Assembly (NCBI GenBank): GCA_902582695.1
Contig: CACHTH010000004.1
Coordinates: 4,064 to 68,063, forward strand
Reading direction: 5' to 3'
DNA from: an uncultured Candidatus Actinomarina sp.
GTDB taxonomy: Bacteria; Actinomycetota; Acidimicrobiia; Actinomarinales; Actinomarinaceae
Length of the DNA stretch: 64,000 nucleotides
Shown here piece after piece: positions 12,906 to 57,431 of the stretch. The stretch's first letter is position 1; each line of letters opens with the position of its first letter. Both the position numbers and the translations under genes were made by a program. The notes below the pieces were generated by a model. The model ran no database searches, was not told the DNA's origin, and worked only from the letters and a program-made list of their open reading frames with translations.

Positions 12906-12941
12906 AAAAAAAGGGATTTTTTATAAAATCCCTTTTTTTTG
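12906..12941 (+). terminator. Intrinsic terminator closing the 8907-12880 operon
   Basis: GGGATTTT-TTAT-AAAATCCC stem-loop followed by a T8 run. Confidence 0.75.
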
Positions 12942-13101: not shown

Positions 13102-13479
13102 ATGAATCTTAAAGACTTCACGGATGTCGAATATATAAATCTTATTACATACAAAAAAGATAAAACGCCTATTACAACTCCAGTATGGGTTGCCGACTTT
13201 TCTAATTCATTAGTTATAACAACAAGTCTGAATGCAGGAAAAGTTAAGAGGGTTAGAAACAATGGTCAAGCAACAATATACATTACTAACCAAAGTGGTT
13301 CTAAAAAGCTATCAGAAAGTATAGACCTAAAAGCATCACTTATAGAGGATGTAGATCTAAAAGAGCAGGCTGCAGATGTAATTAGAAAAAAATATGGCAT
13401 GATGGCAAAAATGATTATGAAAGGACCCGATGAAAATAGGGCAATTATCAGATTAGAAGAAAAGGGAGGTGAAAAATGA
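13102..13479 (+). CDS. PPOX-class (pyridoxamine 5'-phosphate oxidase fold) probable F420/FMN-binding protein
   Basis: 125 aa. YINLITYKKDKTPITTPVWV...KVKRVRNNGQATIY...IRKKYG matches the small PPOX-class pattern. Confidence 0.65.
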   Translation: MNLKDFTDVEYINLITYKKDKTPITTPVWVADFSNSLVITTSLNAGKVKRVRNNGQATIYITNQSGSKKLSESIDLKASLIEDVDLKEQAADVIRKKYGMMAKMIMKGPDENRAIIRLEEKGGEK

Positions 13480-13510: not shown

Positions 13511-15379
13511 TTAAGTTAAATTATCTTTGTGCCATTTTATGACGTGGTCAAATCTTTGTTTTCTGTGATTTGGCGTTCCAGATCTAGAAAGTTCATGACT
13601 TTCACCTGGGAACCTTAGCATTGCTGTTTTTACACCCCTTCTTTTAAGGTTAGAAAATAGCTGCTCCGCTTGTTCTATTGGACACCTGTAGTCTTCTTGT
13701 GAGTGAAGTATGAGGGTAGGAGTTTTAATATTTGATGCGTAGGTGATAGGACTTTTCTTTCTATATAAATTTATATTTTTATCCATATCATCAAGCAAAT
13801 ACATCTCAGGAAAGCCTATTCCTATATCAGATGTTCCAACCATTGTTTCCCAATTTAGAAGTGCTCTTTCAACAATTGCAGATTTAAACATATTCGGATG
13901 ATGACTGATGATCCAAGATGTCATAAAACCACCATATGAGCCACCCATAATTCCGTCATTTTTACTTGTAATACCCATTTCTTTTTTCATGCTTTTAAAT
14001 GAAGTAAGTACATCATGCATATCTGTTACACCCCACTTATTGCCACACACATCTCTTAAGAAATCATGACCTCTACCACTCGACCCTCTTGGGTTACATG
14101 CAATAACATTAAAACCAGCCGAAGCATATGTTTGAAACTCATCAAAAAAGGTAAATGCATACTGGCTTGCAGGTCCACCGTGTATATTTAAGATTGTTGG
14201 CTTATCTTTACCTACAAAAATTCCCCAAGTATCTATCTCAGATTTTCCAGTATCAATTCTTTGATATTGACAATCCCAAGTTTTAACTTTTTTAGTAAAA
14301 AATTCATTAGCTTTAGAAATTTTTGTAAGTTGACCATTATTCAACTCGTATATTTCATCAGGATTTGAAAATGAATTTGCGATTACATATGTTTTTTCAT
14401 TGTTAAAAGCAAAATCTTTAATGGTAACTTTTGAATTTATTAGATCTACATTGTTTGTTCCATCTCGTAGTAAAGTTTTTCCAGAATCTTCGTACAAGAA
14501 ATAGAGGATAGCTTCATTCACTTCTGCTTTAACTATATTTCTATCAAATAAACGATACTTATAAGATACTTTTCCAGTGTTTGAAATTTTTAAAACAGTA
14601 GTATTTGTAGGCCAGTCAAATCTTTTTCTCATGCCTACTGCATGAAGTCCATCTTCGTAGTAGAAAAGATTTCCCATACTGCCTTGCGAATAAATTTCTT
14701 TAATTTTTGAACCCTCTATTGCTCCAATTTTCTCTTCTAGCATGGTTCCTTTAGAGTTGTACTGGTCAAAAGAAAGCACTAAACCTTTCTCTCCCTCCAC
14801 TATTGATTCAATAGAAATAATATCTTTCGCATCACCATCAACAATTTTGGTAAATTTCTTAGTTTGAATGTTTACTTTATAGACGTGAGATCTTTTATTG
14901 TAAATTATGCCTCTTGTATCAAATCGAAAAGGAAGGTTTTCATAGTACATAGGCTCGGAATTTTTATCTTCAATATTTTTAAACTCCTTACTCCACTCAC
15001 TTGTAATCACATACATTGACTTTCCATCTTTACTTAGTGAATAATTACTTATACCTCCTTCAACTTCAAAGACAGTATCTATAGACCGGCCTGCTTGCAT
15101 ATGGATTGTTGATAAGACTTTTTTTGATCTACTTTTATCTTGAACAGACCTATTTGTTTTTATATAAAAAACGGTATTTTCTTTATCCCCAAATTTTGGA
15201 TTACTAAAGTTATTGTTACCTGTCTTAAAACTTTTCCACTGTCCATTACTTCTTTTCCATAGTTCACTTATATAGGTGTTAGTTTCAAAGTCCATTCGAG
15301 TGCTTTGTACCACTAAAGTGGTACCTTTCCCAACTAGGTTAGACAACGTATTAAAAGAGTTTAAATCAGTAGGCTTCAT
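13511..15379 (-). CDS. S9 family serine peptidase (prolyl oligopeptidase / acylaminoacyl-peptidase type)
   Basis: 622 aa. N-terminal [17 protein letters not shown] region and C-terminal alpha/beta hydrolase with a GGSYGG nucleophile elbow, QEDYRCP (Asp) and GESHEL (His). Confidence 0.85.
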   Translation of the reverse strand: MKPTDLNSFNTLSNLVGKGTTLVVQSTRMDFETNTYISELWKRSNGQWKSFKTGNNNFSNPKFGDKENTVFYIKTNRSVQDKSRSKKVLSTIHMQAGRSIDTVFEVEGGISNYSLSKDGKSMYVITSEWSKEFKNIEDKNSEPMYYENLPFRFDTRGIIYNKRSHVYKVNIQTKKFTKIVDGDAKDIISIESIVEGEKGLVLSFDQYNSKGTMLEEKIGAIEGSKIKEIYSQGSMGNLFYYEDGLHAVGMRKRFDWPTNTTVLKISNTGKVSYKYRLFDRNIVKAEVNEAILYFLYEDSGKTLLRDGTNNVDLINSKVTIKDFAFNNEKTYVIANSFSNPDEIYELNNGQLTKISKANEFFTKKVKTWDCQYQRIDTGKSEIDTWGIFVGKDKPTILNIHGGPASQYAFTFFDEFQTYASAGFNVIACNPRGSSGRGHDFLRDVCGNKWGVTDMHDVLTSFKSMKKEMGITSKNDGIMGGSYGGFMTSWIISHHPNMFKSAIVERALLNWETMVGTSDIGIGFPEMYLLDDMDKNINLYRKKSPITYASNIKTPTLILHSQEDYRCPIEQAEQLFSNLKRRGVKTAMLRFPGESHELSRSGTPNHRKQRFDHVIKWHKDNLT

Positions 15380-19690: not shown

Positions 19691-19745
19691 AGGAAAAAGT
19701 ATAAGCCCTTAGTATCCTTATTGCAAGTGTTTTGCAATAAGGAAC

Positions 19746-28253: not shown

Positions 28254-29504
28254 ATGTTAGATCCCGCAATATTAAAAGATAATTTAGAAGTTTTAGAATC
28301 AAATATATCAAGAAGAAATTTAGATATAGATGTGAATCATTTAATTTCTTTAAATGAAGAAAGAAAATCTTTACGGTTTAATGCAGAACAAAAACGTTCT
28401 CAACAAAAGGAATTAGGTAAACAAATTGCAAATGCTGAAAAAAATGAAAAAGAAGAATTATTAAACAAAGCATCAGAATTAAGTGATGAAGTAAAGTTAT
28501 TGTTTGAACAAGTTGATAAAAAAGACGAAGAGTTCTTAAATCAATGGGTAAAAATTCCTAATTTAATTTCCAAAACTTCTCCTGATGGAAAATCTGACAA
28601 AGATAATTTAGAAATTAAAAAAGTTGGAAATGTTAAAGAAATATCTAATCCAAAAGATCACTTAGAAATTGCCTCGCAATTGAATTTAATTGACGTTGAA
28701 AAAGCTTCTGAAGTCTCAGGTTCAAGGTTTGCATATTTATTTGGAGATTTGGTAAAAATTGAGTTTAATTTAGTTTCTTGGGCATTAAATAAATTATCAG
28801 AGAAAGGATTTACTCCTACAGTTCCTCCAGTTTTGGTGAGAGAAAATGCTTTGTATGGTACTGGGTTTTTTCCTGATGACGCAGAGCAGGTTTATGAAAT
28901 TCCAAATGATGATTTGTATCTAGTGGGTACTTCTGAAGTTCCCCTTGCTGCACTGCATACAAATGAAATAATCAATATGGAAGAATTGCCAATAAGGTAT
29001 GCAGGATTTTCAACATGCTTTAGACGAGAAGCTGGTACTTATGGAAAAGATACAACAGGAATATTTAGAGTTCATCAATTTGATAAAGTTGAGATGTTTT
29101 CCTTTTGTAATCCTGAAAAATCTGAAGCCGAACATGAATTTATTCTTTCAGTAGAAGAAGAACTGTTACAGTCCTTAGAGATTCCATATAGGGTTGTAGA
29201 TGTTTGCGCAGGAGATTTAGGTGCTTCTGCAGCTAAAAAATATGATATTGAAGCATGGATACCAAGTCAAAATACATATAGAGAGGTTACATCTTGCTCT
29301 AACACAACTAGCTTTCAAGCTAGAAGACTAAATATAAGAGCAAAGTCAGAAGGAGAAACTAGTATATTACATACTCTTAATGGAACAGCTATTGCAGTTG
29401 GAAGAATTTTAATTGCTTTAATTGAAAATAATCAAACTGAAGATGGAAAAGTTGAGTTCTCTGATAAAGTTGCTGAAATTATTGGTGTTAAAAACCTAGG
29501 CTAA
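28254..29504 (+). CDS. serS: Seryl-tRNA synthetase
   Basis: N-terminal coiled-coil arm and class II motifs (FRREAGTYGKDT, GTAIAVGRILIAL). 416 aa. Confidence 0.95.
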   Translation: MLDPAILKDNLEVLESNISRRNLDIDVNHLISLNEERKSLRFNAEQKRSQQKELGKQIANAEKNEKEELLNKASELSDEVKLLFEQVDKKDEEFLNQWVKIPNLISKTSPDGKSDKDNLEIKKVGNVKEISNPKDHLEIASQLNLIDVEKASEVSGSRFAYLFGDLVKIEFNLVSWALNKLSEKGFTPTVPPVLVRENALYGTGFFPDDAEQVYEIPNDDLYLVGTSEVPLAALHTNEIINMEELPIRYAGFSTCFRREAGTYGKDTTGIFRVHQFDKVEMFSFCNPEKSEAEHEFILSVEEELLQSLEIPYRVVDVCAGDLGASAAKKYDIEAWIPSQNTYREVTSCSNTTSFQARRLNIRAKSEGETSILHTLNGTAIAVGRILIALIENNQTEDGKVEFSDKVAEIIGVKNLG

Positions 29505-30576: not shown

Positions 30577-30665
30577 GGAGGGATCGCATAGTCTGGCCTA
30601 GTGCGCACGCTTGGAAAGCGTGTAAGGGTTTATCCCCTTCGAGGGTTCGAATCCCTCTCCCTCCG
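30577..30665 (+). tRNA. tRNA-Ser (anticodon GGA)
   Basis: GGAGGGA acceptor stem, anticodon loop TTGGAAA, long variable arm, GGTTCGAATCC T-loop. Confidence 0.9.
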
Positions 30666-30685
30666 CAAAAAGAAAGAAACCATCT

Positions 30686-30771
30686 GGAGGGATGGCCGAG
30701 CGGACGAAGGCGATAGTCTTGAAAACTATTGTATGTATTCCATACCGTGGGTTCGAATCCCACTCCCTCCG
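30686..30771 (+). tRNA. tRNA-Ser (anticodon TGA)
   Basis: GGAGGGA acceptor stem, anticodon loop CTTGAAA, long variable arm, GGTTCGAATCC T-loop. Confidence 0.9.
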
Positions 30772-30778
30772 CTGACTT

Positions 30779-30865
30779 GGAGAGGTGACTGAGTGGCCTA
30801 AAGTGCTCGCCTGCTAAGCGAGTGGGGAAGAAATTCCCTCGAGGGTTCGAATCCCTCCCTCTCCG
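30779..30865 (+). tRNA. tRNA-Ser (anticodon GCT)
   Basis: GGAGAGG acceptor stem, anticodon loop CTGCTAA, long variable arm, GGTTCGAATCC T-loop. Confidence 0.9.
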
Positions 30866-30869
30866 CAAT

Positions 30870-30943
30870 GCGCCCGTAGCTTAACTGGATAGAGCATCTG
30901 ACTACGGATCAGAAGGTTGGGGGTTCGACTCCCTCCGGGCGTG
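30870..30943 (+). tRNA. tRNA-Arg (anticodon ACG)
   Basis: GCGCCCGTAGCTTAACTGGATAGAGCATCTGACTACGGATCAGAAGGTTGGGGGTTCGACTCCCTCCGGGCGTG. Anticodon loop CTACGGA. Confidence 0.9.
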
Positions 30944-30954
30944 CATTAAAAACC

Positions 30955-38316: not shown

Positions 38317-39537
38317 ATGTTTCCAATGAGTTTAATAGTACAAAAATTTGGCGGTACGAGTGTCGCAGATACAGATTCACTCAGAATTGTTGCTGAGAGA
38401 ATTATCGATTGCAAGAAAAACGGTAATGAGATAGTAGTTGTTCCGTCTGCAATGGGTTCAAGTACAGATGAATTAATTCAACTTGCTAACGATCTCTCAG
38501 AAAACCCAACACCAAGGGAACTGGATATGCTCCTGTCAGCAGGTGAGAGAATCACAATGTCTTTATTGTCAATGCATCTAAACAGTCTTGGATACAGCTC
38601 TTTTTCTCTTACTGGTTCACAAGCTGGGATAATTACAACATCTAGACACGGACAAGCTGAAATAGAGGAAATAACTGGTGAAAGAGTTAAAGAAGGCTTA
38701 GAGAACGGCGACATTGTAATTGTTGCTGGGTTTCAGGGGTTTAACAGAGACACTAAAGAAATAACAACTTTAGGAAGAGGAGGTTCTGATGCGACTGCAG
38801 TTGCACTTGCTGCTGCTCTTGGAGCAGAGAGATGCGAAATATTTACTGATGTAGAAGGAGTATTTACTGCAGATCCGAGAGTAGTCAACTCTGCTGAATT
38901 AATTCCAGAAATTACCTATGAAGAAATGTTAGAAATGGCTTCTTCAGGCGCTGGAGTTTTAATGGCTAGGTCTGTAGAATTCGGCAGAAGGTATAATGTA
39001 CCAATAATTGTAAAATCAACGTTTACAAATAATGAAGGTACTGAAGTAAAAGAGAAAGTTATGGAAGAAGCATTAGTTAGCGGAGTTACTCATAATACTA
39101 AAGAAGTTAAATTTACTCTTTTTGAGGTACCAGATCAACCTGGAATTGCAGGAACAGTTTTTGGTTCATTATCCGAGATAGGCATCAATGTAGATATGAT
39201 TGTTCAAAATGTGTCCAAAGACTCAATAACCGATATTTCATTTACCGCACCTACTGAACAAAAGGATGCTGTTGAAGACATGTTAAAAAATATTGCTATA
39301 GAACTTAAAGCCAAAGGTTATGATGTTGATGAAAATGTCGGAAGAGTTTCAATAATCGGTGCTGGGATGAAATCAGAATCAGGGGTCGCATCGAAAATGT
39401 TTAAAATACTAGGGGAAAACTCAATAAATATTTCAATGATTTCAACCTCCCCTATCAGAGTTTCTTGTGTAATTGACAGTAAAGATATAAACGCTGCTTT
39501 GGAAGCTTTACATAAGGAATTCATAGAAAAAGAATGA
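38317..39537 (+). CDS. lysC: Aspartate kinase
   Basis: VQKFGGTSV, GRGGSDATAV, and C-terminal tandem ACT regions. The start may be the ATG at 38326. Confidence 0.95.
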   Translation: MFPMSLIVQKFGGTSVADTDSLRIVAERIIDCKKNGNEIVVVPSAMGSSTDELIQLANDLSENPTPRELDMLLSAGERITMSLLSMHLNSLGYSSFSLTGSQAGIITTSRHGQAEIEEITGERVKEGLENGDIVIVAGFQGFNRDTKEITTLGRGGSDATAVALAAALGAERCEIFTDVEGVFTADPRVVNSAELIPEITYEEMLEMASSGAGVLMARSVEFGRRYNVPIIVKSTFTNNEGTEVKEKVMEEALVSGVTHNTKEVKFTLFEVPDQPGIAGTVFGSLSEIGINVDMIVQNVSKDSITDISFTAPTEQKDAVEDMLKNIAIELKAKGYDVDENVGRVSIIGAGMKSESGVASKMFKILGENSINISMISTSPIRVSCVIDSKDINAALEALHKEFIEKE

Positions 39538-46843: not shown

Positions 46844-46876
46844 AATTAAATAATAATAATGATGTGTTTATAAAAT

Positions 46877-46900
46877 AAGCCCCTATTTTCATAGGGGCTT
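46877..46900 (-). terminator. Hairpin, probably an intrinsic terminator after the 64-aa gene (alternatively an operator in front of copZA)
   Basis: AAGCCCCUAU-GAAA-AUAGGGGCUU followed by AUUUUAU on the minus strand. A second hairpin GAAATCTC-N6-GAGATTTC sits at about 46904-46925. Confidence 0.55.
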
Positions 46901-46946
46901 ATCGGAAATCTCATGGGGGAGATTTCATTAGGGGGGAGTTTAAAAC

Positions 46947-47141
46947 TTAAGCAGTTTCTTGGAGAATTCTGCCTCTAACTCTAGGATATTTCACTGGAGC
47001 GTGATTGAAGCAATGATCTCTTTTGTTATATATACTTAGTTGAGTACTGCAAGATTCATCTTTACATACTCTGCCCTGGTCAAAACTTTTTGATGGCCTT
47101 ATTCCGCCCTTAATTTGACTAGCTTTTAATCCGTCTGTCAT
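46947..47141 (-). CDS. Small zinc-ribbon-like protein (C-x4-C-x12-C-x2-H), unknown function
   Basis: 64 aa with RVCKDESCSTQLSIYNKRDHCFNH. AAGGAA SD. Confidence 0.6.
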   Translation of the reverse strand: MTDGLKASQIKGGIRPSKSFDQGRVCKDESCSTQLSIYNKRDHCFNHAPVKYPRVRGRILQETA

Positions 47142-49105: not shown

Positions 49106-49142
49106 TCAACTCCTTTAACTTTTTATATGATAGTATTTAGTT

Positions 49143-49379
49143 ATGGAAATCAAACTTGAATTTTGTGTAGTTTGAAACTACACACCTCGTGCAGTTGGTA
49201 CGATTGAAGATATCTTAGAAGTTTACGGTAACAAAGTTACAAACATTCAACTAATTCCAAGTGGTGGTGGAGTATTTGAATTTCATTTAAATGAAAAATT
49301 ATTATTTTCAAAAAAAGAACTTGGAAGACACTCAGAAGATGGAGAAATTCTTAAATTAATTGAAGAAGATCTTGGTTGA
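49143..49379 (+). CDS. Rdx (SelW/SelT/SelH-like) thioredoxin-fold protein with an in-frame TGA at the CxxU position; candidate selenoprotein
   Basis: Not in the ORF track. ATG 49143, TGA 49173-49175 in frame, stop 49377-49379. Translation: MEIKLEFCVV[U]NYTPRAVGTIEDILEVYGNKVTNIQLIPSGGGVFEFHLNEKLLFSKKELGRHSEDGEILKLIEEDLG. It fits the Rdx pattern (I.YC..C/U....RA...; G.FEV.....l.fSKk..g.fP). Confidence 0.65.
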
Positions 49380-50110
49380 ATCTACCGTTTGACTTAACGC
49401 TATTTGAAGTAATTTTTATTGCAATATTACTTTTTATTGGCTCTGCCGTTCAAGGCGTTTTGGGTTTTGGCTTTGCTGTTATTGCTTCACCAATAATTGT
49501 TCAAATTGAGCCTAGTCTGGTGCCTCAACTGCTAGCGTTACTTGGTTTGCCACTTGCTTTAAGAGTTTTTTACCGAGAAAAAGACGAAGTTGATTTATCT
49601 AAAGTCAAGCCACTTATTCTAGGTCGATTAATAGGAGGACCAATTGGACTCTTATTATTATTAAACTTATCCGAAAAATATTTATCAATCTCTGTAGGGC
49701 TTATTGTTTTTATAGCAGGTGCAGGCTCTTTTTTTGGTTGGGAAATTAACAGAAATAATTTGAATTCCTTTTTTGCAGGTACTTTTTCAGGTATTTTTGG
49801 GATGATTGCAGCCATTGGTGGTCCTCCTGTAGCTTTGCTTTATAGGAATACTAAATCTCAGGAATTTAGGCCATCTCTCAATAGTGTATTTAGCATAGGC
49901 ATTTTGATTACATTGTCTCTTTTAATTTTTAGTGGCAATCTTTATGTTGACCACCTACTTTTATTTATGTTATTTCTTCCAGTTGTTTTGGTAGGCATTA
50001 GAGTTTCTAGCTCGCTTTTCTCAAAAGTCTCTGACAGTTTTATTGCCCAGTCGGTAACTTATTTTTCCATTATTTCTGGGCTTTATGTTATTTTGAGAAA
50101 CATAAATTAG
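49376..50110 (+). CDS. TauE/SafE (TSUP, DUF81) family anion permease
   Basis: 244 aa, about 7-8 TM, with SAVQGVLGFGFAVIASP near the N-terminus. The TTG start overlaps the stop of the Rdx gene (TTGA). Confidence 0.7.
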   Translation: MNLPFDLTLFEVIFIAILLFIGSAVQGVLGFGFAVIASPIIVQIEPSLVPQLLALLGLPLALRVFYREKDEVDLSKVKPLILGRLIGGPIGLLLLLNLSEKYLSISVGLIVFIAGAGSFFGWEINRNNLNSFFAGTFSGIFGMIAAIGGPPVALLYRNTKSQEFRPSLNSVFSIGILITLSLLIFSGNLYVDHLLLFMLFLPVVLVGIRVSSSLFSKVSDSFIAQSVTYFSIISGLYVILRNIN

Positions 50111-57348: not shown

Positions 57349-57370
57349 TTTTTACCTATTTATAATTAGT

Positions 57371-57393
57371 AAAAGGGGCTTTTAGCCCCTTTT
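57371..57393 (+). terminator. Intercistronic hairpin (partial terminator or mRNA stabiliser) between the SBP and permease genes
   Basis: AAAAGGGGCT-TTT-AGCCCCTTTT, a 10-bp stem whose 3' arm ends in T4. Confidence 0.55.
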
Positions 57394-57431
57394 ACTTTGA
57401 ATATAAAAACTTAATCTGATAGGATTTATTT

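Follow-up and report, generated by a model that had tools for sequence, protein, structure and literature searches.

The forward strand of the 64-kb stretch of DNA analysed here (referred to as the window, at its full length) holds at 49143-49379 a reading frame that is interrupted by a single TGA, which raises the question of whether a protein is made across this codon and, if so, by which route and with the help of which RNA structure. The frame comprises 78 codons plus a stop and translates as MEIKLEFCVV*NYTPRAVGT...EEDLG* (in full, MEIKLEFCVV*NYTPRAVGTIEDILEVYGNKVTNIQLIPSGGGVFEFHLNEKLLFSKKELGRHSEDGEILKLIEEDLG*), the TGA at 49173-49175 (codon 11) being its sole internal stop. It is missing from the standard ORF list, as the original prediction had pointed out, since a selenocysteine (Sec) codon resembles a stop and gene callers overlook the gene. 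We consider it very probable that this is a genuine Candidatus Actinomarina selenoprotein gene, which encodes a 78-residue Rdx protein with the motif Cys8-Val-Val-Sec11 by canonical Sec decoding, a hairpin termed H3 serving as the SECIS. That an Rdx/SelW-like gene is present and that its UGA is decoded as Sec had been proposed from the sequence alone; the proposal has gained from profile HMMs, from the alignment with Cys-containing homologues, from the predicted fold, from a TGA found in 93/93 loci and from the Sec machinery as reported for the whole genus. The gene and its codon 11 are given as follows:

49143-49379, + strand: very probable selenoprotein gene of the Rdx/SelW-like type with the motif C8-V-V-U11 (78 codons and a stop), assigned from HMMs, PDB alignment and an AlphaFold2 (AF2) model

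49173-49175, + strand: predicted Sec-UGA, codon 11; TGA in 93/93 loci, opposite the second Cys of the CxxC in Cys-form homologues

HMM searches were performed with the translated product, in which Cys was substituted at the TGA. Pfam PF10262 (Rdx) was matched with 58.7 bits against a cut-off of 22.6 (E = 6.5e-16), residues 3-74 being aligned with profile positions 2-73 of 74, and NCBIfam TIGR02174 'CXXU_selWTH' was matched with 44.3 bits against a cut-off of 34.2. The equivalog NF041051 (SelTWH_Campy) was scored at 80 bits and thereby fell short of its cut-off of 88; the product appears to be related to this subgroup without being a member and to form a subgroup of its own. A sequence search of the PDB returned the SelW-related bacterial structures 3dex, 2fa8, 2ojl and 2p0g, the CxxC of which lies opposite C8-V-V-TGA11, and it is a CTQC that is aligned with this motif in both 3dex and 2fa8. 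The TGA had been placed at the position of the second redox Cys/Sec, and in these solved homologues it does stand opposite the second Cys of the CxxC. An AF2 model, calculated with 15 orthologues as input and W in place of U, reached a pLDDT of 90.5 and consists of beta1 (residues 2-8), the motif loop, alpha1 (14-31), beta2-4 and a C-terminal helix alpha2. The model thus predicts the thioredoxin-like beta-alpha-beta-beta-beta-alpha fold of the family, with the CxxU motif directly after beta1 at the start of alpha1, where the family has it. In Foldseek comparisons the best 21 matches were all bacterial SelW-related structures (TM 0.78-0.82, rmsd 1.3-1.6 A; for 2fa8, TM 0.80 and rmsd 1.4 A), followed by weaker matches to MIEN1, mouse SelW and thioredoxins. 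The Rdx-family layout that had been read from the sequence is borne out by PF10262 and TIGR02174, both above their cut-offs, and by the matching predicted fold: the product is a member of the Rdx (SelW/SelT/SelH-like) family.

Related loci were collected by scanning one genome per species with peptide patterns downstream of the TGA, from which the TGA codon itself was excluded, and 80 loci were obtained. The closest ones stem from single-cell genomes and MAGs of Candidatus Actinomarina / OCS155, several at 100% identity, and the distant ones from Chloroflexota, Marinimicrobia/Fidelibacterota, Gemmatimonas-type and other bins. The codon in front of NY(T/L)PRA was TGA in 93/93 loci, window included, in Actinomarinales as well as in four other phyla. 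Among 57 distinct Actinomarinales gene sequences purifying selection was seen on both sides of the TGA; in the ten codons upstream of it the amino acids are conserved and the changes are synonymous (ATC/ATA, CTT/CTA/TTA, GAA/GAG). The xx residues of the CxxU motif are VV, IV or IT in the Actinomarinales orthologues. An alignment of orthologues for TGA or TGY at this position had been suggested as a check and came out wholly on the side of TGA with coding conservation to either side; a lack of conservation upstream of the TGA, which had been named as an argument against the gene, was not found.

If the UGA is decoded as Sec, a SECIS element would be expected in the mRNA. The best candidate for it is a hairpin that the original prediction overlooked:

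49187-49203, + strand: H3, probable bacterial SECIS, 6-bp stem 49187-49192/49198-49203, loop AGUUG 49193-49197

Unconstrained folding of 49160-49240 yielded two adjacent hairpins, H1 (described below) and H3. The latter is a 17-nt structure, UCGUGC-AGUUG-GUACGA, that starts 11 nt after the UGA and leaves 17 nt between UGA and loop. A spacing rule for SECIS elements, 11 nt after the UGA, was reportedly put forward by Liu et al. in 1998. H3 is present in the MFE and the centroid fold, and the RNAalifold consensus independently predicts it as a whole. In 33 distinct Actinomarinales sequences it is paired in 100% of cells, the closing pair being U:A in 20, C:G in 12 and G:C in 1, and pair 34-42 being G:U in 24 and G:C in 9. 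In the closing pair, a Pro codon (CCU/CCC/CCG) contributes its third base and an Ile, Val or Leu codon (AUU/GUU/CUC) its first. When the pair is traced on a neighbour-joining tree built from 890 nt of flanking sequence, it requires at least 4 state changes, with no unpaired intermediate among the sampled sequences. The sole amino-acid change in an arm of H3, ACG to ATG, retains a G:U pair. No synonymous variation was found at codons 16-18 and 20 (CGT GCA GTT .. ACG) in 57/57 genes; CGT and ACG are rare codons, each making up 6% of its codon family in this genome, and elsewhere in the gene these amino acids are encoded by freely varying codons. The invariance of H3 could partly stem from the invariant peptide motif PRAV, which leaves the frozen synonymous sites unexplained.

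H3 has a free energy of -5.7 kcal/mol alone and of -6.5 kcal/mol in its 40-nt context 49173-49212, where the context z is -0.5. Published criteria for bacterial SECIS elements (bSECIS) demand a loop of 3-9 nt, an upper stem of 4-16 bp, a G at loop position 1 or 2 and a distance of 16-37 nt between UGA and loop (criteria i-iii), together with an MFE of -7.5 kcal/mol or lower (criterion iv; PMC13188914). H3 agrees with criteria i-iii, having a 5-nt loop, a 6-bp stem, a G-U at loop positions 2-3 and a spacing of 17 nt, and at -5.7 to -6.5 kcal/mol it is weaker than the -7.5 kcal/mol of criterion iv. Orthologues in which the closing pair is C:G or G:C reach -9.0 and -8.7 kcal/mol over 60 nt. The other phyla have, ~4 nt further downstream, a G+C-rich hairpin whose loop opens with G[G/U], and this hairpin covaries on its own (CG12/GC3/GU2/AU1 and CG9/UA8). 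No SECIS match was obtained with Rfam, neither at the gathering threshold nor at E <= 10; a recent preprint on Actinomarina notes that Rfam covers bacterial SECIS elements poorly and likewise reports no significant Rfam match (bioRxiv 10.64898/2026.04.03.716425). Judging from conservation and covariation, the working SECIS is most likely H3 and neither of the two hairpins that had been put forward earlier. A pattern search of the window for further copies of H3 gave one look-alike, and at least 2 matches were obtained in 3/100 shuffles. This look-alike, TCATGC-AGTAG-GCATGA at 14629-14645 on the - strand, is located in the 622-aa ORF of an S9-type peptidase; as it has no UGA upstream, we took it for a chance match.

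Decoding as Sec further depends on the corresponding machinery. No tRNA-Sec was found by ARAGORN in the window or in 60 Actinomarinales loci, and none of the 20 window ORFs of selA/selB/selD-like size gave an NCBIfam match to selA, selB or selD. Sec machinery was found neither in the 64-kb window, for which its absence had already been noticed, nor in any fetched locus. A serS gene (28254-29504) lies ~1 kb from a cluster at 30577-30944 of three tRNA-Ser (GGA, UGA, GCU) and a tRNA-Arg(ACG), none of which is a tRNA-Sec. For the genus as a whole, selC(UCA), selA, selD and a divergent selB are described in all 84 complete Actinomarina genomes, along with ~5 predicted selenoproteins per genome (2026 preprint, bioRxiv 10.64898/2026.04.03.716425). 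One could suppose that the UGA is read without selenium, by a near-cognate Trp or Cys tRNA or another kind of recoding, and that the hairpin only stimulates read-through, as the lack of Sec machinery in the window and in the fetched loci and an H3 weaker than the bSECIS energy threshold might suggest. However, the UGA coincides exactly with the catalytic CxxC/CxxU position in a family that is known for Sec forms, it is kept in 93/93 loci although a Trp or Cys product should drift to UGG or UGY, and the full Sec pathway is reported for the genus (bioRxiv 10.64898/2026.04.03.716425), all of which makes a selenium-free reading very unlikely.

Based on family membership, on the conservation of the TGA and on the conservation and covariation of the structure, we infer that the UGA of codon 11 is translated as selenocysteine via the canonical bacterial route. 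SelB together with Sec-tRNA(Sec) would bind an mRNA hairpin just outside the ribosome while the UGA occupies the A site, and the hairpin bound by SelB would be H3 at 49187-49203, starting 11 nt after the UGA.

The two hairpins of the original prediction share one arm and are given as follows:

49164-49184, + strand: H1, lineage-specific 9-bp hairpin whose 3-nt loop is the UGA; putative accessory

49176-49196, + strand: H2, pairing of AACUACAC/GUGCAGUU, probably not functional; overlaps stem and loop of the candidate SECIS

The UGA had been described as the 3-nt loop of a perfect hairpin. The inverted repeat GTGTAGTT/AACTACAC is indeed perfect and extends to 9 bp, pairing 49164-49172 with 49176-49184, at -8.7 kcal/mol (z = -3.5; 0/200 shuffles as good). 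Shuffled sequence contains ~14 perfect hairpins with stems of 8 bp or more per 64 kb, so that chance is unlikely to have placed one with its centre exactly at the UGA. Within Actinomarinales H1 is paired in 93.9% of cells, and its pair 10-24 is GC in 26 and AU in 6 sequences, GTA having changed to ATA along with TAC to TAT in a single evolutionary event. Its 3' arm prefers the minor codons AAC and TAC, which are used in 50/57 and 42/57 genes versus genome fractions of 0.30 and 0.28. H1 is absent in the other phyla, where the xx residues differ. These patterns argue for H1 as a real, order-specific structure. As H1 cannot exist during decoding of the UGA, any role would have to precede decoding, and it would be an accessory for mRNA folding, for shielding the SECIS from pairing as H2, or for ribosome pacing, absent at the moment of decoding itself.

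H2 was likewise recovered as described, with AACTACAC/GTGCAGTT (49176-49183 with 49189-49196) pairing at 7/8 positions around the loop ACCUC; at -3.6 kcal/mol, however, this pairing is weak. It had been suggested that H2 is an unusually close SECIS which alternates with H1 as a switch controlling Sec insertion. Both pairings are present and share the arm AACUACAC, and all changes in this arm keep wobble pairing in H2, with C-G becoming U-G at two pairs. Against this, H2 contains zero compensatory changes and an A.C mismatch in 33/33 sequences, was never picked by the MFE fold or by RNAalifold, and deviates from bSECIS criteria ii and iii, as its loop has no G at position 1 or 2 and lies 8 nt from the UGA instead of 16-37. 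Its 3' arm is invariant because these bases double as 5' arm and loop in the covarying H3, with which H2 competes, and known ribosome footprints suggest that its 5' arm would be inside the ribosome with the UGA in the A site. We regard the SECIS role of H2, and with it the switch, as extremely unlikely; H2 would be an incidental alternative pairing. Of the checks that had been recommended, hairpin covariation favoured H1, through the one compensatory event only, and went against H2, which also departs from criteria ii and iii of the bSECIS model.

The use of TGA as a stop elsewhere in the window, part of the original prediction, was confirmed. The 59 long non-overlapping ORFs end in TAA (45), TGA (8) or TAG (6), and the TGA-terminated ones, among them 13102-13479 and the aspartokinase gene 38317-39537, stop at positions matching the ends of their families, with short extensions only beyond the eight TGA codons. 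Since TGA ends 8/59 long ORFs, the standard genetic code applies, and an alternative code with TGA as sense (tables 4/25) does not fit the window. The stop of the Rdx gene is itself a TGA, which overlaps the start of the next gene, a TauE-family gene. Downstream of the TGA at 49173-49175 there are zero in-frame ATG, GTG or TTG codons from which a shorter gene could start. ORF gaps, extensions past TGA stops and open frames upstream of a TGA were scanned for other in-frame-TGA genes in the window, and none was found. A protein search returned about 90 relatives, most of which have 84 residues with a 'W' at the TGA and six extra residues past the true stop. These 84-aa relatives come from short AT-rich contigs on which genes were called under a TGA=Trp code, and they run through the true stop into the start of the overlapping TauE gene; a JGI call covers a 42-residue C-terminal fragment only and is named 'selenoprotein W-related protein'. 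A pseudogene, a shorter gene behind the TGA or a lineage with TGA as sense (code 4 or 25), as the W-containing 84-aa products and the 42-aa fragment of public gene callers might suggest, has practically no probability left, given a TGA fixed in 93 loci of several phyla, purifying selection on both sides of it, the lack of an in-frame start codon after it, 84-aa products that also cross the true stop into the TauE start, and 8/59 long ORFs ending in TGA at family ends.

The surroundings of the gene bear on how it may be expressed, and two features are of relevance:

49128-49136, + strand: putative extended -10-like promoter element TGnTAGTAT, ending 6 nt before the ATG

49376-50110, + strand: TauE/SafE-family (PF01925) membrane protein gene, an ORF assigned by a Pfam TauE match of an orthologue

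The extended -10-like TGATAGTAT is located within 49128-49142, where no Shine-Dalgarno sequence is present, and a TANNNT hexamer 6 nt before the ATG, again with no Shine-Dalgarno sequence, recurs in all Actinomarinales clades. A generic sigma-70 scan did not call the TGnTAGTAT element. An AAGGAG lies 4 nt upstream of the GTG with which the divergent M3 peptidase gene starts. From the position of the hexamer, the Rdx mRNA is probably leaderless. The TTG start of the TauE gene overlaps the stop of the Rdx gene as TTGA (49376-49379). This junction and an intact TauE frame were found in 72/72 Actinomarinales loci, where the last Rdx codon invariably ends in T and the TauE start is preceded by no conserved Shine-Dalgarno sequence. 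Due to the TTGA overlap and the missing Shine-Dalgarno sequence, translation of TauE may require that ribosomes get past the Sec codon, and the TauE-family permease would be translationally coupled to the Rdx gene. TauE adjacency was absent in 20 loci from other phyla and is therefore not a family-wide partnership.

It is tempting to go further and to picture a selenium-gated mini-operon on a leaderless mRNA, in which only a ribosome with Sec already inserted at codon 11, ~200 nt upstream of the TauE start, can translate TauE, H1 acting as an accessory that, for example, sequesters AACUACAC from the SECIS or paces the ribosome. We consider this extension speculative and rather unlikely; if it were true, permease synthesis would track the selenium supply. 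A literature search for a link between TauE and selenium returned nothing relevant by title or abstract, and an exact-sequence look-up of the neighbouring TauE protein gave no match. K07090 is presumably the TauE family, and no in-frame TGA was found in TauE in any locus here. In the Actinomarina preprint a selenoprotein group 'matching K07090' is listed, and same-strand overlap was used to link predictions with called genes (bioRxiv 10.64898/2026.04.03.716425). This group may be a mapping artefact of the Rdx gene, given the 4-nt overlap of the Rdx gene with a TauE gene that has no in-frame TGA.

Several loci show peculiarities of their own. Actinomarina-type Rdx-TauE-Lnt contigs were encountered in bins labelled Methanobacteriota, Marinoscillum and Flavobacteriaceae (L071, L072, P0062), which resembles misbinning; MAG JBEROH01 contains two divergent copies of the whole locus (L030 and L049) and resembles a mixed bin; and L053 combines the Rdx gene of one clade with the TauE gene of another, which may be due to recombination or a chimera. 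In one clade a 190-aa wrong-strand ORF is called instead of the TauE gene. Elsewhere in the window, a conserved 64-aa Cys/His-rich ORF with no Pfam match (46947-47141, - strand) is located between the CopZ/CopA and M3 peptidase genes and is syntenic in all close relatives, and perfect hairpins of 12-15 bp at 12906-12939, 19715-19743, 46875-46902 and 57368-57396, in or at the ends of long-ORF gaps, could be intrinsic terminators.

The selenoprotein family and the decoding mechanism are already known, and Sec usage in this lineage has recently been reported; our understanding of the Sec decoding mechanism is left unchanged by the Rdx gene. What the analysis offers is a family assignment, together with thiol/selenol oxidoreductase as the likely class of function, for what is probably the commonest 'uncharacterized' selenoprotein of Actinomarina, which is among the most abundant bacteria of the surface ocean. 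Some of the SelW-like sequences by which marine selenoproteomes are dominated would thereby stem from Actinomarina. The analysis further provides a covariation-supported candidate SECIS for an AT-rich actinobacterium in which Rfam models fail, and this candidate could seed a lineage-specific model for finding other selenoprotein genes. Code-4 gene calls on short AT-rich contigs create false 84-aa 'Trp' proteins.

The commonest selenoprotein predicted in the preprint is an 'uncharacterized' 78-residue family with no database match, the deep-Sep 78-aa family, which is present in most genomes (bioRxiv 10.64898/2026.04.03.716425). The Rdx gene belongs to the same genus, has the same length of 78 aa and a single U, and is likewise missed by gene callers. 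The 78-aa family is probably this Rdx gene; the text and supplement of the preprint give no sequence. Unlike the 78-aa family, to which no family was assigned and for which no SECIS was found, the Rdx gene comes with an Rdx/SelW-like assignment and a covarying candidate SECIS.

Among characterized families, the product resembles the bacterial SelW-like/Rdx selenoproteins (PF10262, TIGR02174) in its domain, in a CxxU after beta1, in its small size and in its marine habitat, and its predicted fold superposes on 2fa8, 2obk, 2ojl, 3dex and 2p0g with a TM of about 0.8. In the marine habitat the Sec form of SelW-like proteins outnumbers the Cys form (Sargasso Sea and GOS selenoproteomes, PMC2398784). 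Unlike other Rdx selenoproteins, the Actinomarinales orthologue scores below the NF041051 cut-off, has VV, IV or IT as its xx residues and is part of a fixed operon with a TauE-family gene.

With respect to the RNA, H3 resembles the minimal SECIS of E. coli fdhF, the 17-nt upper stem-loop GGUUGCAGGUCUGCACC (sequence as used in PMC10945757), in being 17 nt long, in starting 11 nt after the UGA within the coding sequence and in having a G followed by U near the 5' side of a small apical loop (G22-U23 in H3, G23-U24 in fdhF). It differs from fdhF in lacking a bulged U, in having the 5-nt loop AGUUG/AGUUA where fdhF has GGUC, and in its AU/GU-rich stem of only -5.7 kcal/mol. Unlike in fdhF, no lower stem pairs the UGA downstream; the UGA is instead enclosed by a hairpin that reaches upstream.
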